From Dehalococcoidales bacterium (lineage in GTDB: Bacteria; Chloroflexota; Dehalococcoidia; Dehalococcoidales; UBA1222): a DNA stretch of 57,856 bases. The translations under genes and the position numbers were made by a program. Below are positions 1,137 through 19,416 of this stretch, in pieces; the first letter of the stretch is position 1; each line of letters starts with the position of its first letter. The stretch spans positions 1 through 57,856 of the forward strand of contig JAEESL010000004.1 in assembly GCA_016286345.1 (NCBI GenBank), written 5' to 3'. The notes under the pieces were generated by a model. That model searched no databases and was not told where the DNA came from. It saw only the letters and a program-made list of their open reading frames with translations.

Positions 1137-1274
1137 CTATTTTTCAATTTTGTCTTTGAGGGTTTCGATTTCCTGTCGGTTTTTCTTCTGTTTTCGCATT
1201 ATATCAAAAACAAGAACACATAAACCGATCCAGATAAGTGTGTAAGCAGCGAATAAATATCCTAAATTATCCAT
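1137..1274 (-). CDS. ccmD: heme exporter protein CcmD (45 aa, not in the ORF track)
   Basis: Manual translation MDNLGYLFAAYTLIWIGLCVLVFDIMRKQKKNRQEIETLKDKIEK*; ATG overlaps the ccmC stop (TAATG); one TM with YLFAAY plus charged tail. Confidence 0.85.
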   Translation of the reverse strand: MDNLGYLFAAYTLIWIGLCVLVFDIMRKQKKNRQEIETLKDKIEK

Positions 1275-1951
1275 TAGTCATTCTCCTTTAAAAGTCTTTT
1301 CTTCATTCTTGCAATTTCATATTCATCTGTTCTCAGATCGTAGTAGAGGAACATGAAAAGGAAATAGACTGCAAACATAGCGGCAATTGAAAGGAGTAGT
1401 GTAAGCAGCATCGTTCCATGAAGGCCGTCGTTGAAGATCATTGCTTTTGGATGGGTGGTAGGTGCCAGCTGGATGCTAAGGGCGACGATGGGAATATCAA
1501 TGAAACCGACAATGCCGATGATTGAACCGAATCTGTATTTTTTCTCTTCTTCAGAGATATATGATCTGATTATAAAGTAAGCAAGATAGATCAGCCACAT
1601 TACAAGTGAACTTGTAAGCCTGGCGTCCCATGTCCACCAAACGCCCCAGATAGGCTTTGCCCAGATCATTCCGGTAAGAAGGATCAATGTGGCAAATACA
1701 AGGCCTATTTTTGCGGATGATTCAGCAATAAAATCATATTTGGGGTTACGGGTCTTCAGATAAACTATTCCAAAGACAAATGTTACAAAGAATGAGAAAA
1801 ATGCATTCCATGCAACCGGGACGTGGAAATAGAAGATACGTTGAATATTGCCCATAGTGGCTTCTGTAGGACAAACAATAAAAACCATGACAAGCGCAAC
1901 AATAATCATTACTGCGCTTATACCGAATGCAATAAGTGTTCTACGTCGCAT
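1274..1951 (-). CDS. ccmC: heme exporter protein CcmC
   Basis: RIFYFHVP and Trp-rich WAKPIWGVWWTWDARLT motif; operon context. Confidence 0.95.
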   Translation of the reverse strand: MRRRTLIAFGISAVMIIVALVMVFIVCPTEATMGNIQRIFYFHVPVAWNAFFSFFVTFVFGIVYLKTRNPKYDFIAESSAKIGLVFATLILLTGMIWAKPIWGVWWTWDARLTSSLVMWLIYLAYFIIRSYISEEEKKYRFGSIIGIVGFIDIPIVALSIQLAPTTHPKAMIFNDGLHGTMLLTLLLSIAAMFAVYFLFMFLYYDLRTDEYEIARMKKRLLKEND

Positions 1952-1960
1952 AACTCCTCC

Positions 1961-2632
1961 TTATTCTTCAACAATATATCTAAATAAAATAAACGGGACT
2001 GTAACAAAGATGATGTCAAATGCCACAATAATCAGCATGTATTGTGTGATATCACTGAATTTGCCTCCGTCGAGAATGACGGATGTCGCAGATACGGCGG
2101 CGATAATCAGTGGTACCACTGTGGGAAGAAACAGAATAGGGAGTACCATTTCCCGTGCTCTCGTATTGACTGCAAGCGCTGAGAAAAGTATTCCTATCGA
2201 AACAAATCCGATCGTGGCAAGTAAAGTGACAAGAATAACAATGGGATTGATAACTGATACATTATATAAAAGTGTAAAAACAGGGAAGACAACGATTTCT
2301 ATGATCAGCATGAAAACAATGCTGCCTATTGCCTTGCCCAGGAAAATCGCATCCCTGCTTACAGGGCTTGCAAGAAGACCTTCCATACAGTTATCTTCTT
2401 TTTCAGAAATAAAGGCTCTGTTGATGGATAAGACACCTGAAAACGCAAACGCCACCCATAACATACCGGGAGCAAGCGAAAGAATTGTTTTCTGATCAGC
2501 TGTGAAAGCAAAATGGAAAATGATAAGTGTCAGAACAGCAAACAGCAGAACAGAGGAAATAATCTCTCTGTTTCTAAGTTCGGAAATAACATCCTTTTTT
2601 GCTATTGCGAAGACTGCTTTCCAGTAGTTCAT
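1961..2632 (-). CDS. ccmB: heme exporter permease CcmB
   Basis: FISEKEDNCMEGL (FxxE/DxxDGxLE-like) and LPILFLP motifs, multi-TM, overlaps ccmA. Confidence 0.93.
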   Translation of the reverse strand: MNYWKAVFAIAKKDVISELRNREIISSVLLFAVLTLIIFHFAFTADQKTILSLAPGMLWVAFAFSGVLSINRAFISEKEDNCMEGLLASPVSRDAIFLGKAIGSIVFMLIIEIVVFPVFTLLYNVSVINPIVILVTLLATIGFVSIGILFSALAVNTRAREMVLPILFLPTVVPLIIAAVSATSVILDGGKFSDITQYMLIIVAFDIIFVTVPFILFRYIVEE

Positions 2633-3339
2633 TTTTTGCCTTCGTTGACTTCACTGTATATTTTTTCCAGATCACTCTCTGTGATGCCGTTATTATCCTG
2701 TCGGTGAACAACAGATCCCTTTTTCATGATTATAAATTCATCACAGATTTTTACAGTGCTCTGAAAATTATGACTTGTAAAAATAACTGTTCTTTCTGTA
2801 TCGTCTGTTCTGACGATTTCCCATAACAGCTCCATGCTGTCACGGTCCAGTCCTGTTTCCGGTTCATCCAGCAAAAGAATAGACGGCTGATGTAAAAGAG
2901 CTCTCGCCAGACTCAGCCGCTGTGTCATACCGCGCGAATATGTTCCGACACGATCGTTCCTTCTGTCATACAGATTTACTTTTTTCAGTATCTCATCGAT
3001 CCGTTTGTCCGGATCCTTTAAATTGTAAAGGCTGGAATAGAACTTCAGATTCTCCTTTGCGGACAGATTTGAATACAGGTAACTGTTATGAGACAGTAAA
3101 CCAATCTTGCTTCGCAGTAAAGTGTCATCTTCTTTCAGTTCTTTGCCGTCGATGAAGACTTTACCTTCAGTAGGGTGCATGATGGTTGACAGTACTCTGA
3201 TAAGCGTACTTTTTCCGGCTCCGTTATGACCAAGGATTGCAAGTATTCTGTTTTTGTCTACGGATAGATTGACGTTTTTAAGGGCTTTAAAATCCCCAAA
3301 CCGTTTTGTTAAATCCTTACACTCTATCGCATATGACAT
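2629..3339 (-). CDS. ccmA: heme exporter ATP-binding protein CcmA
   Basis: Walker A GHNGAGKST, signature YSRGMTQR, Walker B LLLDEP; next to ccmB. Confidence 0.92.
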   Translation of the reverse strand: MSYAIECKDLTKRFGDFKALKNVNLSVDKNRILAILGHNGAGKSTLIRVLSTIMHPTEGKVFIDGKELKEDDTLLRSKIGLLSHNSYLYSNLSAKENLKFYSSLYNLKDPDKRIDEILKKVNLYDRRNDRVGTYSRGMTQRLSLARALLHQPSILLLDEPETGLDRDSMELLWEIVRTDDTERTVIFTSHNFQSTVKICDEFIIMKKGSVVHRQDNNGITESDLEKIYSEVNEGKK

Positions 3340-3354
3340 CTGAATAATGTTGCC

Positions 3355-5310
3355 TTATCTTTCCTTGGAGAATGCAACCAATCCGCCCAGGACAAGAATG
3401 ATACCGCCGATCCAGATCCACAGTACTCCGGGATTGACTTTAACTGAGATAGTGGAAGTATTATCATCCCAGTCATCCAAACTGATGTATATATCATCAA
3501 TGAGTGTGGATCTGATTCCTATCTCTGATACCCACTGGGCCTGGCTTCTGTAGAATGATCTGTGAGGAGTTATTCTGCCGACGTATTTGCCATTCTTGGT
3601 GACATCATAGAATGCGTAATAGTTTATCTTGTTACCCATTCCTCCGCCTTCAGGTATCTGATCCATCGATAACTGCATTCCATCAAAGGTTATTTCATAA
3701 TTGCTGACTGTAAGTGATTCACCTATCGCCAGAGTATTTGATTCGCTTTCAGGGAAAACAGTTGATGCCATGATACCGAGAGCCATAATGGCAATACCAA
3801 TGTGTGCAAGATAAGAACCATATCGCGGTCTGTTTGTCTTGAATAAATTGCCAAGGGCTTCAAAGACGGTCTTATTTGTACCGCTGGCAGCCGTTTTGAT
3901 ATCCATGATCCATTTCCAGATGGTGCTGGCAATCATATAGAAGAATGCAAATCCGCTTACAATTACATACCATTTTGTCCAGCCAATGAAAGCCATGACA
4001 ACAGATGCGGCAATTGCTACCAGAACAGGGACCAGAATATCAAGTTTCATTTCTTTTGCAGATTTCTTCTTGAAATCAAACATAATGCCGATTCCGGCGA
4101 TTACAGCCAGTATTACAAATAAAGGTACATTTACTGTCTGGAAGAACGCCTTGGTCTGTTCAATTCGTCTGCCTGTCAGGATTTCTGAGAAGAAAGGATA
4201 CATTGTGCCAACCCAGGTAGCGAATGTTGAAAGAGAAAGAAGTACATTTACCAAAAGGAATGAAGTATCTGAAGAGAAGAAACTGTCTTCTTCTGATGTT
4301 GTCTTATATAGTTTTTTGTTTCTGATAAGTAAAGTCAGGGAAACACCAAGTGAAATAATCAGGAATACAAGGAAAGCAGGACCCATTGCGGTCGATCCGA
4401 ATGAGTGAACTGATTCCAGAATGTCGCTTCTGGAAAGAAATGCGCCAAACATTGTCATATTGAATGCAAAAATGATAAGGACATAATTCCAGATCTTGAA
4501 GGAATTGCGTCTCTTTTCCATGAGAGATGAATGGAGGAAAGCAGTGGCAAGCAGCCATGGCATCAGACCGCTGTTCTCAACAGGATCCCAGGCCCAGTAG
4601 CCACCCCAGCCGAGTTCCACATAAGCCCACCACATACCGAGAATGTTACCGGCTCCGAGGAATAACCATCCAAGCAGAGCCCATGGACGTGCTTCTGTAA
4701 TCCAAAGACTGTCAGTTCTTTTCTGTATAAGAGAAGAGACTGCAAGAGCAAATGGTACTGCAAGCAGTACATAACCTATCAACAATAGGGGAGGATGCAG
4801 GATCATTGCTATGTTTTCAAGGAGAGGGTTAAGACCGTGACCATTGGTGTACGGCATAGCTGCGGGAGTGAACGGGTTAGCTGAAAAAATAAGTACAATA
4901 AACAAAATATTGACCAGGAGCATTACAGGCATTGCCTGGGGAACTAATTCTTTAAGCCCCGGTCTCTTGATCTTAATAAGAAGGAAACTCAACAGACTGC
5001 ATATCCATGCCCATATAAGAAGTGCACCTGCATTACCTGCCCACAGAGCTGTAATCTTGTAAATAAGGGCTGTTTCATTTGATGTGTATTGATATACATA
5101 TTGCAGGGTATAATTGTCTGCGATAAGTGCTATCAGAAGCAGAAGCTCAGAGAGTGTTAAAATCGCAAAGATGGTTTTTATGCCAAATTCCGCATATTTG
5201 TTCAGTACAGTGGTATCCTTCTTTTTGTTCCATGACATAAAATAAAGAACACCTGTCATTACTGACACTATAAGTGCAATGACCAGCAGCAGATTTCCTA
5301 ATGTACTCAT
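3355..5310 (-). CDS. ccmF: cytochrome c heme lyase CcmF
   Basis: GLNPLL, HPP, WGGYWAWDPVEN and SVHSF motifs. Confidence 0.97.
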   Translation of the reverse strand: MSTLGNLLLVIALIVSVMTGVLYFMSWNKKKDTTVLNKYAEFGIKTIFAILTLSELLLLIALIADNYTLQYVYQYTSNETALIYKITALWAGNAGALLIWAWICSLLSFLLIKIKRPGLKELVPQAMPVMLLVNILFIVLIFSANPFTPAAMPYTNGHGLNPLLENIAMILHPPLLLIGYVLLAVPFALAVSSLIQKRTDSLWITEARPWALLGWLFLGAGNILGMWWAYVELGWGGYWAWDPVENSGLMPWLLATAFLHSSLMEKRRNSFKIWNYVLIIFAFNMTMFGAFLSRSDILESVHSFGSTAMGPAFLVFLIISLGVSLTLLIRNKKLYKTTSEEDSFFSSDTSFLLVNVLLSLSTFATWVGTMYPFFSEILTGRRIEQTKAFFQTVNVPLFVILAVIAGIGIMFDFKKKSAKEMKLDILVPVLVAIAASVVMAFIGWTKWYVIVSGFAFFYMIASTIWKWIMDIKTAASGTNKTVFEALGNLFKTNRPRYGSYLAHIGIAIMALGIMASTVFPESESNTLAIGESLTVSNYEITFDGMQLSMDQIPEGGGMGNKINYYAFYDVTKNGKYVGRITPHRSFYRSQAQWVSEIGIRSTLIDDIYISLDDWDDNTSTISVKVNPGVLWIWIGGIILVLGGLVAFSKER

Positions 5311-5322
5311 TGATTTATTCTC

Positions 5323-5709
5323 CTAAACTGCAGGTTCATATTTAGATGAGCATTTGACGATTAATTCATTTGCAATGAAAGTTGCTGTATTAGGATCGTA
5401 CTTTCCTGCGGCAACAACTTCATTGCCGATTTTGAATGTATCAGGAATTGAGCCTTCATAATAAGCATTAAGAACCAAGGATTCATCATTCATATCAGTG
5501 AGGACAAATGCCACTGAATTCTTATCTCTTTCTTCAGACAAAAGGGTTCCATTGACTTTGGTGTTATGCATCTGCTGTTCAACAGTCTGTGACAAAAAAT
5601 CACCGACTTCATAATAATATGCATTATCACCCATAAAATAAGCATATCCGAGTACTGCAATTGCAAACGCAACTGCTACTGATGAAATTACAATCGTTTT
5701 TGATTTCAT
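5323..5709 (-). CDS. ccmE: heme chaperone CcmE, CxxxY (System I*) variant
   Basis: N-terminal TM, YEGSIPDTFK and KCSSKY motif instead of HxxxY. Confidence 0.93.
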   Translation of the reverse strand: MKSKTIVISSVAVAFAIAVLGYAYFMGDNAYYYEVGDFLSQTVEQQMHNTKVNGTLLSEERDKNSVAFVLTDMNDESLVLNAYYEGSIPDTFKIGNEVVAAGKYDPNTATFIANELIVKCSSKYEPAV

Positions 5710-5753: not shown

Positions 5754-6206
5754 TTACACGTGTTCAATCTGGTGTTCTTTGATATCGTCCAGAAGCTCAT
5801 ACAACAGTGTATACAGCTGACCGGCTTTTTCCGGAGATAAGCTGATACAATTTTTCATGGAATCCGGGATGGTTGCGGCTTTCTCCCGCATTTCCCATCC
5901 TTTTGATGTCAGTCTAATTTTAACAATACGTTCGTCTGATAACTCCCGTGATTTGGTGATGTAACCATTTGATTCCATTCTTTTCAGCAATGGTGTCAGA
6001 GTACTGTTATTTAGATACAACTTTTCTCCAAGATCACCGACGGTTATATCATCTTTTTCCCAAAGAACCATGAAGACAATGTATTCTGTATAGGTTAGTC
6101 CGAGTGGTTTGAATGCCGGGTTATACAGATTTACAACCTGTCGTGCAGCTGCATAAAGAGGAAAACATAACTGATTTTCCAGCTTAAGCTTTAGATACTG
6201 ATCCAT
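5754..6206 (-). CDS. MarR family regulator, OhrR-like
   Basis: LENQLCFPLY with the N-terminal Cys typical of OhrR; TLTPLLKRME...DER winged helix. Confidence 0.88.
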   Translation of the reverse strand: MDQYLKLKLENQLCFPLYAAARQVVNLYNPAFKPLGLTYTEYIVFMVLWEKDDITVGDLGEKLYLNNSTLTPLLKRMESNGYITKSRELSDERIVKIRLTSKGWEMREKAATIPDSMKNCISLSPEKAGQLYTLLYELLDDIKEHQIEHV

Positions 6207-6274: not shown

Positions 6275-6320
6275 GACTTAAATCATTGAATCGGGTGATT
6301 CACTGAGACCTGATGGCAAT

Positions 6321-6352
6321 AAAAAAACCGCTAGTGGTGTAGCGGTTTTTTT
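6321..6352 (-). terminator. intrinsic terminator after the small multiheme cytochrome gene
   Basis: AAAAAAACCGCTA-GTGGTG-TAGCGGTTTTTTT hairpin with A/T tails. Confidence 0.85.
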
Positions 6353-6376
6353 ATCAATATTCAATTGTAATGATTA

Positions 6377-6853
6377 TTAGATATTTGAAATATCGGTCAA
6401 ATCATGGCACATAGTGCACATATCATTACTATATGCCTTGTGGTTATCAGGAAGTGCACCAGCAACAGCACCGGTATGACACTTTCCTGCAAGTGATACA
6501 TCGAAGTTTGAGTGATCAGGAACAACTTTGTTGGGAAGTGCTTCGATGTTAGTTACATCATGACACAACACACACAGGTCAGTAGTAAAGTCTTTATGGC
6601 TTTCTGGAACAGCACTGGCCGATGAACCATCGTGGCATGCAGCACAAAGATCGCCGGAAGTGTATGAGGCGTGGCTGGGTGTTGGTTCAGGTCCGGATGT
6701 AGGAGGATTGGTTGTGGGAGGAGTTGTTGTAGGTCCCTGTGATGTAGGAGGATTGGTTGTGGGAGGAGTGGAAGTTTTCTTACCGCTACATGCAACAGAG
6801 AACAGTGAAAGAACCAATACTGTCACAGCAATGACTGTCAAAAGCTTTTTCAT
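6377..6853 (-). CDS. lipoprotein multiheme cytochrome c (3 CxxCH plus 1 AxxCH) with Pro/Thr stalk
   Basis: Lipobox SVA-C; PPTTNPPTS repeats; CAACH, CVLCH, AGKCH, CTMCH. Confidence 0.88.
   Translation of the reverse strand: MKKLLTVIAVTVLVLSLFSVACSGKKTSTPPTTNPPTSQGPTTTPPTTNPPTSGPEPTPSHASYTSGDLCAACHDGSSASAVPESHKDFTTDLCVLCHDVTNIEALPNKVVPDHSNFDVSLAGKCHTGAVAGALPDNHKAYSNDMCTMCHDLTDISNI
6696..6769. repeat. 29-bp exact direct repeat, two copies at 45-bp period, encoding the TPPTTNPPTS linker
   Basis: GATGTAGGAGGATTGGTTGTGGGAGGAGT at 6696-6724 and 6741-6769. Confidence 0.85.
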
Positions 6854-7016
6854 TTTGTCCGTACATTCATCCTTTCTTTAGATTTTACAATTTTCTATTC
6901 TAACAAACTCTTATCGTGTAGACAAGTACAGCTATTTTTTAAACAATCTTATTATTCCATCAATGATGAGTATTAGATATTACCAATGTCACATTTTTCC
7001 AGAACAGCAGGCAAAT

Positions 7017-7044
7017 AAAAAGGCCCTTCAGACGAAGGGCCTTT
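7017..7044 (-). terminator. intrinsic terminator after the dodecaheme cytochrome gene
   Basis: AAAAAGGCCCTTC-AGAC-GAAGGGCCTTT; U-tract on the minus strand. Confidence 0.85.
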
Positions 7045-7064
7045 AATAACATATGCTTTAGATA

Positions 7065-8072
7065 TTAGATGTTTGTAATATCGTTAATATCGTGGCAGGC
7101 GAAGCACATATCGTTGTTGTATGCCTTGTGATTGTCAGGCATTGCATTTGCAGCTGATCCATCGTGACAAGTTGCACAGATTGCAGGATCAGTGAAGGTT
7201 GAGTGATCAGGAACTGTCTGAGGATTTTCGATATCGTTTACATCGTGACAATTGAAACACTGATCAACAGAGTAGCCTGCATGATTCTCAGGGAGTGCAT
7301 TTGCAGCTTTGCCGTTGTGGCAGGTTGCACAGGTTGAAGGATCAGTGAATGCAGTGTGATCAGGCAGTGTCTTAGGATTCTCGATATCTTTAATATCATG
7401 GCAGGCGAAGCACATATCAGTTGCGAAAGCTGAGTGATCAGGGGTAGTGGGGAGAGCGCCTGCGGCTGAGCCGTCATGACATGTTGCACAGATTGCGGGA
7501 TTAGTGAATCCGGAGTGATCAGGAGTGGATTTAGGATTCTTGATGTCGTTCATATCATGGCAGTTGAAACACTTTGATTTGTCATATCCGGCATGATCTG
7601 CAGGAAGGGCATGAGCATAGCTGCCGTTGTGACATACTTCACAGTTGGCTGCTGAAGTGAATTTTGAATGATCAGGTGTAACTGCACTGTTAGGAAGTTT
7701 TTTGATGTCCTTGGTGTCATGACAAATCAGACACTGAGCTGCAGTGTACTTGCTGTGATCTGCAGGAAGTGCTGATGCTTGTTTTCCATCATGGCAGTAA
7801 GCACAGCCGTCACCAGTGGTCATCTGGGTGTGATCATACATACCGGAAGGATTATCAATTGTATGACACTGTCCGCAGTCCTGGTTGGTATACTGTGAGT
7901 GATCAAGACCGCTCATAGCGGTAGCACCGGCATGACATGCATTGCAGTCTCTGAAGAGCCATTCAGGGCTGTGAGGACCACCGTTCATCGATTTGTTGCC
8001 ACAAGCAGTGGCGCCCAAAGCCAATGCTGCGATAAGGAGTAAACCGAAAATTACTTTTTTGTTAGTTTTCAT
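7065..8072 (-). CDS. lipoprotein dodecaheme cytochrome c built from six tandem di-heme repeats
   Basis: Lipobox ATA-C; 12 CxxCH motifs, each preceded 8-9 residues upstream by another His (PH/DH/NH); AGGAG RBS. Confidence 0.93.
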   Translation of the reverse strand: MKTNKKVIFGLLLIAALALGATACGNKSMNGGPHSPEWLFRDCNACHAGATAMSGLDHSQYTNQDCGQCHTIDNPSGMYDHTQMTTGDGCAYCHDGKQASALPADHSKYTAAQCLICHDTKDIKKLPNSAVTPDHSKFTSAANCEVCHNGSYAHALPADHAGYDKSKCFNCHDMNDIKNPKSTPDHSGFTNPAICATCHDGSAAGALPTTPDHSAFATDMCFACHDIKDIENPKTLPDHTAFTDPSTCATCHNGKAANALPENHAGYSVDQCFNCHDVNDIENPQTVPDHSTFTDPAICATCHDGSAANAMPDNHKAYNNDMCFACHDINDITNI

Positions 8073-8084
8073 ATTTGTATCTCC

Positions 8085-8951
8085 TTATCTTCCTCTCAAT
8101 TTGTCATACCAAACCAAGAAGTGATGTTTGGTATCTTCCAGGGTCATATCAAATGTCCACCAGGACCAGAATGAAGCCCAGTGACCAAGAATTACGACGA
8201 TCATTACGTGAACACAGGTGTAGAAGATAATGAAAATACCGAAATAGTCATGGAGAATGGTAGCAATACCATCAATGATAGCCGGCATGCTAATGAGATG
8301 TGCACCAAACTTGACTGCACCGGATAAGAAACAAACAACACCGATTAAGAAGTAAGGTACAGCTGCAGCTTTCTGGCTGGCCATGTATTTGTCGGGTTCT
8401 TCCCAGTAATTTCTGTAAGTATATTTGCCGATGAAACCTTTGATAACTTCGTGCCATTTAGGAACGAGATACCAGATGTTCCAGTTTGCAATGTAGTCGC
8501 ATACGAATAACGCACCGCCAAAACAAATCAGACATACTGCAAAGTAATGGAAGTTAAGAGGTGCGACTGTTGCTCCTGCAGTTCGGGCAAACGGACCAAT
8601 CATACCGAAGCCGAGTGAAAGGCCGAGTATTGCACCGGATACTGCTGCAGCGAAGATGCCGAATGCAGTGTACCAGTGTTCAATAAATGAACCTATGCCA
8701 TGTCGAATCACTACGCCTTTCTCAATTCTTGACTGTTTCTTTAATCTGCCTCGCATGAAGCCCAGAATACATCCAAGAACGAATATGCCGATTAAGACAT
8801 ACTGTCCAATCTTGTTGTCCCAAAGAGAAACATCTTTGAGAACGGTGTAGGATGCAACAATGCCACCTGCCAGGGCAGCCAAAAGAACAATCGTCAGGAT
8901 AATAGCCTGTGGTTTAAAACGTGATGCATAACGTTTAAGTGTTTTGATCAT
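8085..8951 (-). CDS. membrane di-heme cytochrome b (FdnI/HyaC-like) with two extra N-terminal TMs
   Basis: RH...EHW, H92/H135/H234/H248 (last pair 14 apart as in FdnI), KYMASQK resembling FdnI KYNAGQK; AAGGAG RBS. Confidence 0.8.
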   Translation of the reverse strand: MIKTLKRYASRFKPQAIILTIVLLAALAGGIVASYTVLKDVSLWDNKIGQYVLIGIFVLGCILGFMRGRLKKQSRIEKGVVIRHGIGSFIEHWYTAFGIFAAAVSGAILGLSLGFGMIGPFARTAGATVAPLNFHYFAVCLICFGGALFVCDYIANWNIWYLVPKWHEVIKGFIGKYTYRNYWEEPDKYMASQKAAAVPYFLIGVVCFLSGAVKFGAHLISMPAIIDGIATILHDYFGIFIIFYTCVHVMIVVILGHWASFWSWWTFDMTLEDTKHHFLVWYDKLRGR

Positions 8952-9203
8952 AAACCATCAATCTCCTTCGATTATTTTTTTGCCTGTTGTAAACCAAAAT
9001 CAATCGTGCAGAAATATTTGCACAATTTTGAACAATGATATTATGAAAATCACCCCAATGTCAATATTTTTAACATAGTTTTAGGCACAAAAATGCTTTT
9101 ATTTTTTTGATAACATTTATGACATTTTTTTCAGTAAATTTCATTTTTTTATAGATTTTTTTTGGACGGTTTATTGAACAGATTATTGAAGTTATAATAA
9201 TAA

Positions 9204-9830
9204 TTGATGTTATTACCTAATGATGTAAAAATACCGGCTATTCTCATGGCTGCCGGAATGAGTACCAGAATGGGAAGAAACAAACTGCTTCTTCCTTTTA
9301 ATGGACATACAGTTATTGCTGAGACTTGCGATAGGCTTCTGGCATCTCATGTAAGTGAAGTCATTGTCGTTCTGGGCAATGATCACGATAAGGTACTGAA
9401 CCAGGTCGCAGATAAAGGTGTCCAAATGGTCCTTAATCCTAATTTTGCGCGGGGTATGATGACTTCGCTGCAGACCGGTATCAGTTATCTTCCTGAGAAT
9501 ACCAGGTTCTTTATGGTTGCTTTGGGAGATCAGCCTCTTGTTTCTGTTGGAACTTATAATGCACTCATTGGTGCTACTGCCTATACCAGCAGGAAGATAT
9601 TTGTCCCTGTGTATGGAAGACAGCGTGGTAATCCTATTATTCTGTCTGCTGATTATATCCAGGAAATAATGGGTATGGATGGCGATATCGGAGGCCGTGA
9701 GATCCTGAGACGGTATCCCGGAGATATACAGGAAGTTGCAACCACTAATGAAGGTGTAATCATTAATATGAATACACCTGAAGAATATGCCCGCCGAAAA
9801 GCCGAATTTGATAAAAAGATGGGTTTATGA
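9204..9830 (+). CDS. MobA/MocA-like nucleotidyltransferase (molybdenum cofactor cytidylyltransferase-like)
   Basis: MAAGMSTRMGRNKLLL, LGDQP, GNP, GDIGGR, NMNTPEEY motifs. Confidence 0.85.
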   Translation: MMLLPNDVKIPAILMAAGMSTRMGRNKLLLPFNGHTVIAETCDRLLASHVSEVIVVLGNDHDKVLNQVADKGVQMVLNPNFARGMMTSLQTGISYLPENTRFFMVALGDQPLVSVGTYNALIGATAYTSRKIFVPVYGRQRGNPIILSADYIQEIMGMDGDIGGREILRRYPGDIQEVATTNEGVIINMNTPEEYARRKAEFDKKMGL

Positions 9831-16707: not shown

Positions 16708-19416
16708 ATGAACACTAATAAGAAATCTAACAGACTTATTTACCTGGCAACCGTTTTATTAGTCCTGATTTCCGTATTAGGTACATTCACCGGCTGCAGT
16801 AAGGAAACCGAATCCAATGAGATCAAATATAAGACCTTTGATGATTTTGCAGGTACATCCATCGGCAGTTCTCTCGGTGATGATTACGAATCACTGATAT
16901 TCGATACATTTCATGATATCACTCATAAAGAATACACTGACTTTCATGCCGCTCTGGTAGGTCTCGAACACAGACAGATTTCAGCAATGCTGACCCAGAA
17001 GCCCTGTGCACTGGCAGTCGCCGCAGAAAACAGTGAACTGGCAGTATTTCCTATTGTTGTTGATACAGAAAACACAAGTTTTCTTTTCAAATATGGAAGT
17101 GAACTGACTGCTCCTGTTTCAGCAATAATGAAACAAATGGATGAAGACGGGACGATTGCAGCTCTTCAGGAAAAGTGGCTTGATTTCGAAGGTGAGGATC
17201 CTGTTATAGATCCCTCTTTGAGAGACACTTCAGGAAGGACCGGCGGAAAGATCAGATTCCTTATTGACATTGCCGGAATTGTTCCTTTCGGTTACTTCGA
17301 TGCAGACGGACAGCCTACCGGTTATGAAGTTGAACTATTCCTGATGATCGCACAGAAATTAAATATGGATGTCGATATCAAGAGCATGGATCTTGTATCT
17401 TCCATGCAGGCACTTAAACAGGGAAAGGCCGATATGCTCGGCAGTAACATCCCTTATACAGCTGAGCGTGCTGAAGAATTTGATTTCTCATATCCCGACT
17501 GGGTGAATGATATTGTCCTCCTCTGCCAGAAAGCAGATATTATGGAGGTCGAAGAAGAGGAACATAAAAACTTCTTCCAAAGCATTGCAGACAGTTTTTA
17601 CAAGACATTCATCAGAGATGCCAGATGGAAACTTGTACTCAATGGTTTGCTCATTACATTACTGATCACATTCCTTTCCGGTATTTTCGGAACTGTTGTC
17701 GGATTTTTCTGGGCGATTGGTTTCAGAGCAAAGAAAAAATGGATTTCAACACCTCTGAAGGTCATATCAAAGTTTCTGTCCGGAGTGCCGAGTATCGTTA
17801 TACTTCTGCTGACTTATTATGTCGTATTTAAATCGATTGATATTGCTCCGCTCGCAGTAAGCATAATTGCCTTTACGGTCATATTCGGCAATAAGATTGC
17901 AGGGATGATCGACGGCGGTATTGCATCAGTCGGAAAAGGGCAGTGGGAAGCTGCAACAGCTCTTGGCCTGACCAGAAAACAGACCTATAACAAAGTCGTA
18001 TTTCCTCAGGTGATCCGTGCGATACTTCCGTCATACAAGGAAGCTTTCGGCGGCTTGCTTGAATCAACTTCCATTGTGGGTTACATCGCAATTGCAGACC
18101 TTACCAAAGCGGTTGATATCATCAGAAGCAGAACGTATGAAGCTTTCTTCCCGTTAATTGCTGATGCAGCGATATATTTCATGGTTTCATGGCTGATCAT
18201 ATTTATCTTTACTAAGATTGAGATCAAAGTTGATGTTTATAACAGGAAGCGTGCCCTCACACGCGGTGTTAATAAAAACGTAACGATCAAAAAAGGTATT
18301 TCCAATGTCGAAGGTGAAAAAGGCGAGGAAATCATTCGTCTTGAACATATAAAGAAAGTGTATCCGAAGGTGACTCCTCTTGTTGATGTCAATGGTATGA
18401 TCAAGAGGGGAGACGTTATTGCGATAGTCGGCCCTTCAGGCACAGGAAAGTCAACACTGCTTCGATTGATCAACCGTATGGAAGACCCGACCGAGGGTAA
18501 GATATATGCATTTGGACAGGATACCGATTCCGAAGATTACGATCTTGTTGAACTTCACAAAAATATGGGAATGGTCTTCCAGCATTTCAATCTGTTCACT
18601 CATCTGAACGTAATTGAAAATGTAATGCTTGCTCCTATGGTGGTCAATCACATGTCGGCACAGGAGGCATATGAAGCAGGTATGGGCCTGTTGAAAACAC
18701 TTGGTGTTGCGGAAAAGGCTTTGGTTTATCCTGATGAACTGTCAGGCGGCCAGATGCAGAGAGTCGCAATTGCAAGAGCAGTTGCCATGAATCCCCAGGT
18801 ACTTCTTTTTGATGAGCCGACAAGTGCACTCGACCCTGCGATGGTGGATGAAGTTATTGCAAGTATGAAGATTCTTGCAAAACGTGGATTGACAATGCTT
18901 GTCGTAACGCATGAAATGCAGCTTGCACGTGATATTTCCACAAGACTCTTCTACATGGATAAAGGTGAGATCTATGAAGAAGGTCCGACTGAGGAGATGT
19001 TTGAGAATGCCAAGCGTCACAGAACTCTTGCTTTCATCAACAGAATGAGAGTGCTTGAACTCACCATCTTCAGTGCCGATTATGACTTCCTGGCAATGAA
19101 CAAAAGGATCACTGTTTTCTGCGACAGACATGAGATCCCTCATGCCAGAAATGAACAGATACTCAGATGCTTTGAAGAAATCGTTGCAGTCAACATCGTT
19201 CCTAAACTTGAAACAGGTTCAAAGCTTCATGTATTCATCGATTATCAGAGTGACAGAAAAGAGCTCTCCATGGTCTTCAACTGGCGGGGTGCAAGATTTG
19301 AGCCTATGGTCGACGGTGATGAAATCTCGGTTATGATCATCAGAAAGAGTATTACACGTGACGATTATCGTTATGATGATGCTGACACCAGAAATATTTT
19401 CAAAGTCGTACTTTAA
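16708..19416 (+). CDS. single-chain polar amino-acid ABC transporter (substrate-binding domains, permease, ATPase) with extra C-terminal domain
   Basis: Lipobox-like FTG-C; PFGY..G.PTGYEVEL SBP motif; GQWEAATALG EAA loop; GPSGTGKST, LSGGQMQR, FDEPTSALDP; about 120 aa tail. Confidence 0.9.
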   Translation: MNTNKKSNRLIYLATVLLVLISVLGTFTGCSKETESNEIKYKTFDDFAGTSIGSSLGDDYESLIFDTFHDITHKEYTDFHAALVGLEHRQISAMLTQKPCALAVAAENSELAVFPIVVDTENTSFLFKYGSELTAPVSAIMKQMDEDGTIAALQEKWLDFEGEDPVIDPSLRDTSGRTGGKIRFLIDIAGIVPFGYFDADGQPTGYEVELFLMIAQKLNMDVDIKSMDLVSSMQALKQGKADMLGSNIPYTAERAEEFDFSYPDWVNDIVLLCQKADIMEVEEEEHKNFFQSIADSFYKTFIRDARWKLVLNGLLITLLITFLSGIFGTVVGFFWAIGFRAKKKWISTPLKVISKFLSGVPSIVILLLTYYVVFKSIDIAPLAVSIIAFTVIFGNKIAGMIDGGIASVGKGQWEAATALGLTRKQTYNKVVFPQVIRAILPSYKEAFGGLLESTSIVGYIAIADLTKAVDIIRSRTYEAFFPLIADAAIYFMVSWLIIFIFTKIEIKVDVYNRKRALTRGVNKNVTIKKGISNVEGEKGEEIIRLEHIKKVYPKVTPLVDVNGMIKRGDVIAIVGPSGTGKSTLLRLINRMEDPTEGKIYAFGQDTDSEDYDLVELHKNMGMVFQHFNLFTHLNVIENVMLAPMVVNHMSAQEAYEAGMGLLKTLGVAEKALVYPDELSGGQMQRVAIARAVAMNPQVLLFDEPTSALDPAMVDEVIASMKILAKRGLTMLVVTHEMQLARDISTRLFYMDKGEIYEEGPTEEMFENAKRHRTLAFINRMRVLELTIFSADYDFLAMNKRITVFCDRHEIPHARNEQILRCFEEIVAVNIVPKLETGSKLHVFIDYQSDRKELSMVFNWRGARFEPMVDGDEISVMIIRKSITRDDYRYDDADTRNIFKVVL

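Follow-up and report, generated by a model that had tools for sequence, protein, structure and literature searches.

The ORF at positions 7065..8072 of the window (the whole stretch of Dehalococcoidales DNA that was analysed, 57,856 nt) encodes a putative membrane-tethered, lipoprotein-type cytochrome with twelve predicted heme attachment sites in six di-heme modules, and the gene preceding it (8085..8951) encodes a cytochrome b of the FdnI/HydC type. Our preferred reading, to which we assign a probability of about 0.6, is that both proteins form a split, CbcL-like conduit that leads electrons from the membrane to the outside. The membrane di-heme cytochrome b would exchange electrons with the membrane carrier pool, and the lipid-anchored dodecaheme cytochrome would dock through its conserved first unit on the outer face of its partner. 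Electrons would then travel along units 2-6, which may be arranged linearly and whose hemes are probably all bis-His ligated, to partners beyond the cytoplasmic membrane, with a linker-tethered small cytochrome (6377-6853) as the likely next station. The hemes would be attached by the adjacent Ccm system. Functionally, the pair would be the two-gene counterpart of quinol oxidoreductases in which a b domain and a multiheme c part are fused, for example CbcL of Geobacter. All genes and gene parts of the locus are encoded on the minus strand.

The dodecaheme product consists of 335 aa and contains 12 CxxCH motifs, which start at residues 43, 66, 90, 114, 144, 168, 195, 221, 248, 272, 299, and 323 and follow each other at distances of 23-30 residues. 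Chance is excluded as their source, because about 0.0014 motifs are expected at the amino acid composition of the genome and 20,000 shuffles of the protein gave a mean of 0.13 and a maximum of 3. The protein comprises 25 His, of which 12 lie within the motifs. Of the 13 others, twelve are located exactly 9, 8, 9, 8 and so on residues ahead of the first Cys of successive motifs and the thirteenth is H154. An earlier interpretation made without database searches (the sequence-only reading) had described six units of the form H-x8-CxxCH ... H-x7-CxxCH, in which each motif has its own upstream His. Both statements are borne out by these positions, as a His at -9 or -8 is found for all 12 motifs. 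The signal peptide (8001..8072) ends at Cys24, which is kept in 10 of 10 orthologues and is the presumable site of a lipid anchor; genes for Lgt and LspA were found in the genome search. After Cys24 the mature protein has 312 aa, equivalent to 26.0 aa per heme. The CxxCH motifs, the export signal and the adjacent ccm genes together point to a c-type multiheme cytochrome. An AlphaFold2 model based on a 26-row alignment reached a pLDDT of 61 and a pTM of 0.25 and is unusable for geometry; Foldseek searches with this model returned no match at E ≤ 0.001, with HmcA and a fragment of GSU1996 listed at E > 2.

Alignment of the protein yielded six units of 47-54 aa each (~51 aa): unit 1 (aa 30-76, hemes 1-2, 7845..7985), unit 2 (aa 77-130, hemes 3-4, 7683..7844), unit 3 (aa 131-181, hemes 5-6, 7530..7682), unit 4 (aa 182-234, hemes 7-8, 7371..7529), unit 5 (aa 235-285, hemes 9-10, 7218..7370), and unit 6 (aa 286-335, hemes 11-12, 7068..7217). 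Units 3-6 share 52-70% protein identity, whereas unit 1 is just 26-35% identical to the others. It is the sole unit kept in all orthologues, among which P33, H34, F40, C43, C46, H47, H58, C66, C69, and H70 are invariant, and it is the predicted docking module. At the DNA level the units are 61-71% identical to one another. The recurrence of DNA stretches quoted in the sequence-only reading is real: a 57-nt family comprises four copies (at 7158, 7311, 7470, and 7623; 70-79% identity to the reference copy) and a 153-nt family comprises three stretches (7129-7281, 7282-7434 with 74% and 7441-7593 with 67% identity). Tandem Repeats Finder reported no 153-nt array at a score of 30 or more on the locus. 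The unit copies are old rather than recent.

The same reading had seen signs of tandem expansion. A recent or ongoing expansion is not supported, given the divergence of the units and a 1174-nt contig of another study (X5 record 21). This contig covers 6740-7913 with five differences and no gap and thus runs gapless over units 2-6. In the strongest sense of ‘length-tunable’, the number of repeats would vary among strains even today by slippage or recombination, and direct tandem units with common 57-nt and 153-nt stretches could in principle recombine. We hold this for very improbable, since the units have diverged to 61-71% identity, an array of 153-nt period is absent, the 1174-nt contig is gapless and a metagenome scan for the locus found one locus alone, which was 100% identical and hence allows no comparison between strains. 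The X10, X11, and X12 contigs are likewise colinear with the locus and no unit-length joint was listed for them, although contigs can hide rare unit-number variants. One joint (8050>8118) in a single X12 contig was discounted, as its shorter side measures merely 22 letters. Of the proposed “modular, length-tunable” heme chain, the di-heme modules and a module number that differs among homologues stand, but given the DNA identity and the lack of unit-length changes in the contigs the length varies on an evolutionary time scale only.

By its profile match, the repeat unit is the already described Paired_CXXCH_1 domain (PF09699), which reached 71.3 bits (cut-off 20.6) over four stretches of the protein; the repeat is not new and the surprise is limited to that extent. 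Relative to the unit used in the sequence-only reading, the register of the Pfam domain is shifted by half a unit. TIGR01905 matched with 30.0 bits (cut-off 25.2). All five PF09699 matches in the genome are located at the dodecaheme locus. Compared with other Paired_CXXCH_1 cytochromes, the dodecaheme protein consists of almost nothing else and keeps an even H-x7/8-CxxCH period of ~25 aa throughout. Models of characterized families of fixed size remained far below their cut-offs, namely the DmsE/MtrA family TIGR03508 (50.2 bits against a curated cut-off of 192.2; aligned aa 140-328) and the GSU2203 decaheme family NF041028 (33.9 against 325), so that no full-length match to such a family was found. 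The c7 tri-heme repeat TIGR04257 (29.1 bits against 40) and the NCBIfam NrfH model (30 against 134) also stayed below theirs. NapB is a small module with two c-type hemes, both bis-His ligated, and the unit resembles it in this general respect, bis-His ligation being predicted here. The NapB-type likeness that had been suggested is not supported, however: NapB is absent from the five Pfam families listed for the dodecaheme cytochrome up to E 0.1, and no NapB chain occurs among the best 60 of 82 profile matches to solved structures.

The best sequence matches are very large multiheme cytochromes of 588-3592 aa, which are uncharacterized and labeled ‘cytochrome c3 family protein’ or ‘hypothetical’ in their sources. 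They share about 30-35% identity over 250-aa stretches that recur up to 19 times. These proteins are 3 to 10 times longer than the dodecaheme cytochrome and include no full-length orthologue; those with a named source derive from other phyla (Gammaproteobacteria, Zixibacteria). Paired_CXXCH_1 is present in nearly all long relatives, and among the wider relatives the CxxCH count ranges from 3 to 131 per protein, with about 25-30 aa per heme. An HMM built from the unit matched 148 of 155 sequence hits. It undercounts diverged units, with no more than 24 units recognized where a protein has 129 CxxCH, so that the number of heme motifs is the more reliable measure. Recovery of the relatives required an exhaustive search, since only five weak matches came from a word-indexed search among proteins of similar length. 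An Atlas search returned generic multiheme clusters alone (0.85-0.87, under the 0.9 line).

A single-sequence search of solved structures gave nothing significant (best E 0.0058), whereas a profile of 26 homologues matched chain 6r2q_A, presumably the decaheme MtrA inside its porin, in one colinear stretch (positions 182-403 on 62-319 of 333, E 2.8e-19). The profile also matches other multiheme structures. The likeness to MtrA/DmsE concerns the colinear heme spacing, seen with TIGR03508 and with 6r2q_A, and the similar size (333 aa in the solved chain), while the dodecaheme cytochrome differs in having 12 hemes instead of 10, in its lipoprotein anchor and in its low TIGR03508 score. GSU1996, the dodecaheme ‘nanowire’ cytochrome of Geobacter sulfurreducens, is alike in its twelve hemes on about 320 residues and its repeated small modules; its hexaheme fragment 3ouq_A was matched in the profile search with E 9.5e-12 and by fold weakly (3oue, E 7.4). 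The module of GSU1996 is a c7-type tri-heme domain in contrast to the di-heme unit found here, and some of its hemes are His-Met ligated.

The dodecaheme gene starts 12 nt after the cytochrome b stop codon. Upstream of the cytochrome b gene, a promoter-like site (TTGACA-18-TATCAT, 9035..9064, minus strand) agrees with the consensus at 11 of 12 positions and is proposed on this consensus match alone. A terminator-like hairpin of 11 pairs followed by a T run (7019..7044, minus strand) lies 20 nt past the dodecaheme stop codon. Further downstream is the gene of the small cytochrome (6377..6853), a 158-aa paralogue with a lipoprotein signal, a Pro/Thr-rich linker and two units that hold three CxxCH and one AGKCH. 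Its sequence shares 50% identity with aa 233-335 of the dodecaheme cytochrome, and the DNA at 6375-6481 is 71% identical to that at 7063-7169. A gene for a MarR-family regulator (5754..6206, family match) separates the cytochrome genes from the ccm genes. The latter encode the heme chaperone CcmE (5323..5709; PF03100, E 1.4e-17) and, according to family matches, a CcmF/NrfE-type heme lyase (3355..5310) as well as CcmA (2629-3339), CcmB (1961-2632), and CcmC (1274-1951), which together span 1274..3339. Contigs from two metatranscriptome runs of two studies overlap the dodecaheme gene and one of them, 759 nt in length, joins it to the 3′ end of the cytochrome b gene; such RNA-library contigs prove neither transcription nor a single transcript, and parts of the window that the compared runs leave uncovered are no evidence of absence.

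The neighboring gene (8085..8951) encodes a protein of 288 aa which is classified as an FdnI/HydC-type (PF01292-like) cytochrome b with a four-helix core and two extra N-terminal helices and is predicted to bind two hemes. The assignment is based on the orthologues and on the fold. PF01292 is matched by 11 of 13 orthologous cytochromes b (best E 1.8e-10), while the copy in the window reaches no Pfam threshold. The AF2 model (pLDDT 76, pTM 0.73) matched FdnI best (1kqg_C, 189 of 216 residues aligned, rmsd 3.6) with a Z of 10.7, which is modest for a helical bundle, followed by CybB (5oc0_A, Z 8.4). Foldseek ranked 1kqf_C first with a probability of 1.0, at an E of just 0.086. H92, H135, H234, and H248 are invariant in all 13 sequences and fall into the predicted helices 86-112, 125-155, and 224-255, giving a putative ligand pattern of 1 + 1 + 2. 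The pair H234/H248, 14 residues apart, is taken by us to mirror the His pair of FdnI. As regards the membrane carrier, the 91%-complete genome gave no match for MqnA/D and none for MenB, MenA-like matches remained below the cut-off and NuoLMN are present.

Complex prediction supports the view that unit 1 docks to the cytochrome b on its outer face. Three runs with the cytochrome b, unit 1 and four hemes scored 0.73, 0.02, and 0.73 (median 0.73), and the best control scored 0.00. Of 157 solved complexes 116 attain this mark, as do 2 of 215 mismatched pairs; the calibration is only rough here because our own alignments were supplied and hemes were included. The runs share at least 58% of contacts with a partner pLDDT of at least 47; in the run scoring 0.02 the fold of the partner was uncertain. 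The predicted contact residues on the cytochrome b (40-45, 109-132, and 214-232) are all situated in loops which positive-inside reasoning on the model helices puts outside the cell.

In CbcL of Geobacter, a HydC/FdnI-type di-heme b domain is fused to a multiheme c domain. The pair described here is likened to it by domain make-up: in both, a PF01292-like cytochrome b goes together with a multiheme c part that faces outward. The pair differs in consisting of two separate ORFs instead of one polypeptide and in a c-type part that is probably lipid-anchored and built of Paired_CXXCH units. A passage of PMC11492766 describes CbcL homologues as inner-membrane-associated multiheme cytochromes. Of the two reasons given there for a high number of hemes, one is electron storage, and a small protein with twelve hemes would suit a capacitor or generic redox buffer rather than a directional conduit. 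The tight coupling to the cytochrome b gene and the predicted docking point to through-flow instead, and most orthologues manage with four hemes; we therefore regard a storage function as improbable.

Within the order Dehalococcoidales the cytochrome b is present in 42 of 301 genomes, among them all 15 genomes sampled from the family to which the analysed genome belongs. Thirty loci were compared, and in 28 of them the next gene encodes a heme lipoprotein; 25 of these genes are complete and three are cut by a contig end. The syntenic position holds 2, 3, 4, 10, or 12 heme motifs. Four motifs split by a Thr/Pro-rich linker are the arrangement of 16 of the 25 complete genes, and 10 or 12 hemes without a linker are restricted to the genus of the analysed genome. 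The family-wide conservation (15/15) of the locus of cytochrome b, heme lipoprotein and ccm genes is found in an order whose Dehalococcoides strains are reportedly without quinones and cytochromes (PMC10772276). No description of this locus was found in the literature searched (Dehalococcoidia multiheme cytochromes, nrfA, rumen, Thr-rich-linker lipoproteins).

NrfA is one candidate acceptor of the conduit. Contigs C96 and C109 of the genome carry two nrfA genes (PF02335, E about 1e-67), whose products have the active-site CxxCK and lipoprotein-type signals. As a special case of the conduit, the pair of cytochrome b and dodecaheme cytochrome might be the dedicated electron donor to both NrfAs and replace NrfH or NrfBCD, a role we judge to be unlikely. 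It would agree with the absence of a cytochrome gene next to either nrfA gene, with the lack of a match to PF03264 (NrfH/NapC/CymA) in the 91%-complete genome, with the finding that apart from the NrfAs and one octaheme protein no multiheme ORF was found elsewhere in it, with the presence of NrfA in both genomes of the genus (12 and 10 hemes) and with the cytochrome b being found in six of the seven NrfA-bearing genomes out of 301. On the other hand, 36 of the 42 genomes that encode the cytochrome b gave no NrfA match, so the module of cytochrome b and heme lipoprotein is not NrfA-specific. Moreover, genome G003 possesses NrfA and yet the ordinary 4-heme linker form, the nrfA genes are unlinked to the dodecaheme locus, and a chain of 12 hemes exceeds the length needed for a periplasmic hand-over.

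A further possibility, which we consider less likely than not, is an envelope-spanning wire that carries electrons to or from insoluble or external acceptors, for instance humics, metals or other cells acting as partners. The chain would extend from the membrane across the surface layer of a cell that has no outer membrane. Such a wire is favored by the heme density of the chain (26 aa per heme) and by its closest sequence relatives, multiheme proteins of very large size in which the CxxCH count rises to 131. According to a passage of PMC11492766, long wires are predicted for comparable multiheme proteins made of one polypeptide. The Thr/Pro-rich linkers of the relatives and the linker-tethered small cytochrome suggest a distance to bridge, and the module occurs far more widely than NrfA. 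Against it, no partner in the envelope or surface layer was identified, the model gives no geometry (pLDDT 61) and the animal gut, the habitat indicated by the runs, offers no clear acceptor. The organism was seen in DNA runs from gut as well as in contigs of RNA libraries from several studies. As regards the split conduit, no candidate other than this locus was found that could connect the membrane with the two NrfAs or with acceptors outside.

For this one genus we propose that duplicated heme units replaced the Thr/Pro-rich tether between the two di-heme modules of the relatives. In doing so, tandem heme modules in place of the disordered tether may have turned a ‘ball-on-a-string’ shuttle into a continuous 10- to 12-heme wire, a step that is conceivable rather than probable at present. 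If true, the locus would offer a natural side-by-side comparison of tether diffusion and wire hopping across the same gap. The H-x7/8-CxxCH element of ~25 aa would then be a self-sufficient, stackable wire segment, of which other bacteria use up to about 130. Linker and heme-filled forms of 180-335 aa are expressible and could test the effect of heme number and tethering on reach and rate.

The dodecaheme cytochrome is encoded by the ORF 7065..8072 (-), whose product of 335 aa contains 12 CxxCH motifs with a motif-to-motif spacing of 23-30 residues. With the composition of the genome about 0.0014 such motifs would be expected by chance, and a maximum of three was reached in 20,000 shuffles of the protein's own sequence. 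The mature protein, past the invariant Cys24, comprises 312 residues, which corresponds to 26.0 residues per heme. Twelve of its 25 His residues lie inside CxxCH and 13 outside, and with the exception of H154 each of the latter precedes the first Cys of one motif, at a distance that alternates between 9 and 8 residues from motif to motif. The H-x8-CxxCH ... H-x7-CxxCH pattern proposed in the sequence-only reading was thus borne out for all 12 motifs.

The repeat is composed of six alignable units of 47-54 aa, and each unit consists of two similar halves of about 25 aa with the form (P)DH-xx-[FY]-x4-CxxCH. Units 3-6 share 52-70% identity on protein and 61-71% on DNA level; the N-terminal unit 1 is the most divergent one, with 26-35% protein identity to the others. 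The recurrence on DNA level that had been noticed before is real and comprises two repeat families within the gene, one of 57 nt with four copies and one of 153 nt with three copies (74% and 67% identity). Tandem Repeats Finder detected no array with a period of the 153-nt type at the gene, from which it follows that the copies are old.

The unit corresponds to the Pfam family PF09699 (Paired_CXXCH_1), which was matched in four stretches with 71.3 bits (cut-off 20.6), and it also matches TIGR01905. The previously suggested likeness to NapB did not hold, as no NapB family occurred among the Pfam matches up to E 0.1. Models of characterized families of fixed size all remained far below their cut-offs, namely DmsE/MtrA (50 vs. 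192), GSU2203 (34 vs. 325), the c7 tri-heme nanowire domain (29 vs. 40) and NrfH (30 vs. 134). An exhaustive phmmer search against 1.84 billion representatives yielded 607 relatives at E <= 0.001, of which 42 reached E <= 1e-30, the top ones being very large proteins with up to 19 matched stretches each. Among 155 relatives examined, the number of CxxCH motifs ranged from 0 to 131 per protein with typically 25-30 aa per heme; P0010 carries 131 motifs in 3592 aa and P0006 129 motifs in 3274 aa. An HMM of the six units matched 148 of the 155 with a median of seven units, whereby the units in the largest relatives are undercounted. The long relatives, nearly all with PF09699, are labeled "cytochrome c3 family protein" or "hypothetical" in the source records, and the few with a named source derive from Gammaproteobacteria and Zixibacteria. 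The dodecaheme cytochrome is a new compact member of the already known Paired_CXXCH multiheme cytochromes.

A single-sequence search with the dodecaheme cytochrome matched no solved structure. A profile of 26 homologs matches many multiheme structures, and with chain 6r2q_A (333 aa), which we take to be the decaheme MtrA despite a different label in the structure record, it aligns in one colinear stretch (residues 62-319, E 2.8e-19). Since the AlphaFold2 model was too poor for use (pLDDT 61, pTM 0.25) and a Foldseek search with it gave no match, a linear heme geometry can only be inferred.

The start codon of the cytochrome lies 12 nt past the stop of a gene for a 288-aa membrane protein (8085-8951 (-)). 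A promoter-like site, by consensus match only, precedes this gene at 9064-9035, and a terminator-like hairpin of 11 pairs is located 3' of the cytochrome gene at 7044-7019. The membrane protein of the window itself has no Pfam match; 11 of 13 orthologs match PF01292 (prokaryotic cytochrome b561/Ni-hydrogenase b type, best E 1.8e-10). The fold nearest to its AlphaFold2 model (pLDDT 76, pTM 0.73) is FdnI of formate dehydrogenase-N (1kqg_C; Z 10.7, 189 aligned residues, rmsd 3.6), which was also ranked first by Foldseek (prob 1.0, E 0.086), followed by CybB (5oc0_A, Z 8.4). Four His residues, H92, H135, H234, and H248, are invariant among the orthologs and all lie in predicted membrane helices, an arrangement as required for a di-heme cytochrome b of the FdnI type; presumably they correspond to the heme ligands of FdnI itself. 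The complex was predicted with four hemes from cytochrome b and unit 1 (aa 24-80), using alignments supplied by us. The scores were 0.73, 0.02, and 0.73 (median 0.73) with a best control of 0.00. Of 157 solved complexes, 116 attain 0.73, as do 2 of 215 mismatched pairs; for a run with own alignments and hemes this calibration is only rough. The runs share at least 58% of contacts, with a partner pLDDT of at least 47, and the predicted contact residues on cytochrome b are 40-45, 109-132, and 214-232. By the positive-inside rule, applied to the helices of the model, these loops face outward, to the side where the lipoprotein would sit; genes for Lgt and LspA are present in the genome.

The additional interest of this member of a known family is its context: Dehalococcoidales possess a conserved module of cytochrome b and heme lipoprotein, and in one genus heme units have taken the place of a tether. 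Of 301 sampled genomes of the order, 42 were found to encode cytochrome b, among them all 15 of the same family. Directly downstream, 25 of 30 loci compared carry a complete heme lipoprotein gene, three are cut by the contig end and in two no such gene was found. Two heme motifs are encoded in four of the complete genes, three in three and four in 16, while the single genes with 10 and 12 motifs belong to the sister genome in the same genus and to the window, respectively. The 4-heme forms keep the conserved first unit, followed by a gap and the last di-heme module. This gap spans 28-80 residues (46-80 in 15 of 16, with 45-74% Thr, Pro, Ser or Gly in these 15) and is occupied by heme units in this genus. 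Loci with a linker are spread over several families, while those rich in heme are confined to one genus, and from this distribution we infer the linker form to be ancestral. Among themselves, units 3-6 of the window are 52-70% identical, whereas none of them exceeds 45% with a unit of the sister genome; in the latter, units 2 and 3 share 56%. Hence either the duplications are specific to the lineage or the units were homogenized.

The genome that the window belongs to comprises 1.46 Mb in 115 contigs (91% complete, 42.6% GC). The stretch 6300-9000 is present in at least 20 public runs from 13 studies, labeled as sheep, bovine and other animal gut metagenomes plus one anaerobic digester; eight of them are RNA libraries. 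Two studies contributed RNA-library contigs on the cytochrome gene, one of which (759 nt) bridges it and the cytochrome b gene; this is evidence of presence, neither of transcription nor against rare variants. In the four runs compared, contigs were colinear with the window and contained no joint of unit length, although rare variants could be hidden in contigs; a DNA contig of run X5 (1174 nt) covers 6740-7913 with five differences and no gap. The idea of a length-tunable chain stands across lineages, with 2, 3, 4, 10, and 12 heme motifs, but, on the evidence so far, not within the species.

The best reading of the dodecaheme cytochrome and cytochrome b is that of a split, CbcL-like conduit. 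The membrane di-heme cytochrome b would give electrons to, or receive them from, the lipid-anchored heme chain reaching outward, and the linker-tethered small cytochrome may be the next station. As candidate acceptors the genome encodes two lipoprotein-type NrfA nitrite reductases (C96:507-1694 (-) and C109:2263-3486 (+); both PF02335, CxxCK and four CxxCH, lipoprotein-type signal); it also encodes one octaheme cytochrome of 487 aa (C87:21986-23449 (+), L027:4987-6450; PF13447, C-terminal hydrophobic anchor), the gene of which adjoins glycosyltransferase genes. The two NrfA sequences are closely similar (L025, L026); both genes lie on short contigs and neither is flanked by a gene for a cytochrome partner. 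No NrfH/NapC family member was found in the 91% complete genome. Of the seven NrfA-bearing genomes among the 301, six also possess cytochrome b; conversely, the search found no NrfA in 36 of 42 cytochrome b genomes, so that NrfA can be no more than one client of the conduit. As for the membrane carrier, the 91% complete genome encodes NuoL, M and N, but searches for MqnA/D and MenB gave no match and MenA-like matches were below the cut-off.

The literature searched on Dehalococcoidia and multiheme cytochromes, a limited collection, contained no description of this locus. According to these sources, Chloroflexi supergroup cytochromes with at least 20 motifs occur mostly in Anaerolinea (bioRxiv 10.1101/2021.08.23.457424), predicted single-polypeptide "nanowire" cytochromes reach up to 27 hemes, with high heme numbers being ascribed to storage and long-distance transfer and CbcL homologs also mentioned (PMC11492766), and Dehalococcoides strains are without quinones and cytochromes (PMC10772276).

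Downstream of the cytochrome gene follow, in this order, genes encoding a small paralog, a MarR regulator, CcmE, CcmF and CcmA/B/C. The paralog (6377-6853 (-), 158 aa) consists of a Pro/Thr-rich linker and two units; the PTTNPPTS-type linker is encoded by a 15-nt tandem repeat at 6698-6771 (4.9 copies, 66% matches). Its third heme site (residues 120-124) reads AGKCH, the first Cys of CxxCH being replaced by Ala, and so either carries its heme by one thioether only or is dead; the other three are intact. In four of five genomes, the small cytochrome shares in its heme part 50-61% identity with the C-terminal part of the large one encoded in the same genome and only 26-39% with the large cytochromes of other genomes; the fifth gives 40%. 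This comparison, which includes the window (6377-6853 vs. 7065-7370), L002, L004 and L008, points to a repeated within-locus duplication or gene conversion between both genes.

The C-terminus of CcmE (5323-5709 (-)) reads CSSKYEP; the relatives have CASKYEP (L008) and, where L002 is cut off, ...ECAS. A Cys thus stands at the position which in the common HxxxY motif is taken by the His that binds heme. The CxxxY variant of CcmE is known from archaea and Desulfovibrio. Divergent from cytochrome b, the relatives encode a small His-rich helix-turn-helix protein, Fur-like by eye (L002:3154-3555, L004:3122-3394, L008:3000-3242); the window has a MobA-like gene (9204-9830) at this position and the MarR gene downstream instead. 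Finally, a single ORF of 902 aa at 16708-19416 (+) combines solute-binding (PF00497), ABC permease (PF00528) and ABC ATPase (PF00005) domains and would be a fully fused ABC importer.
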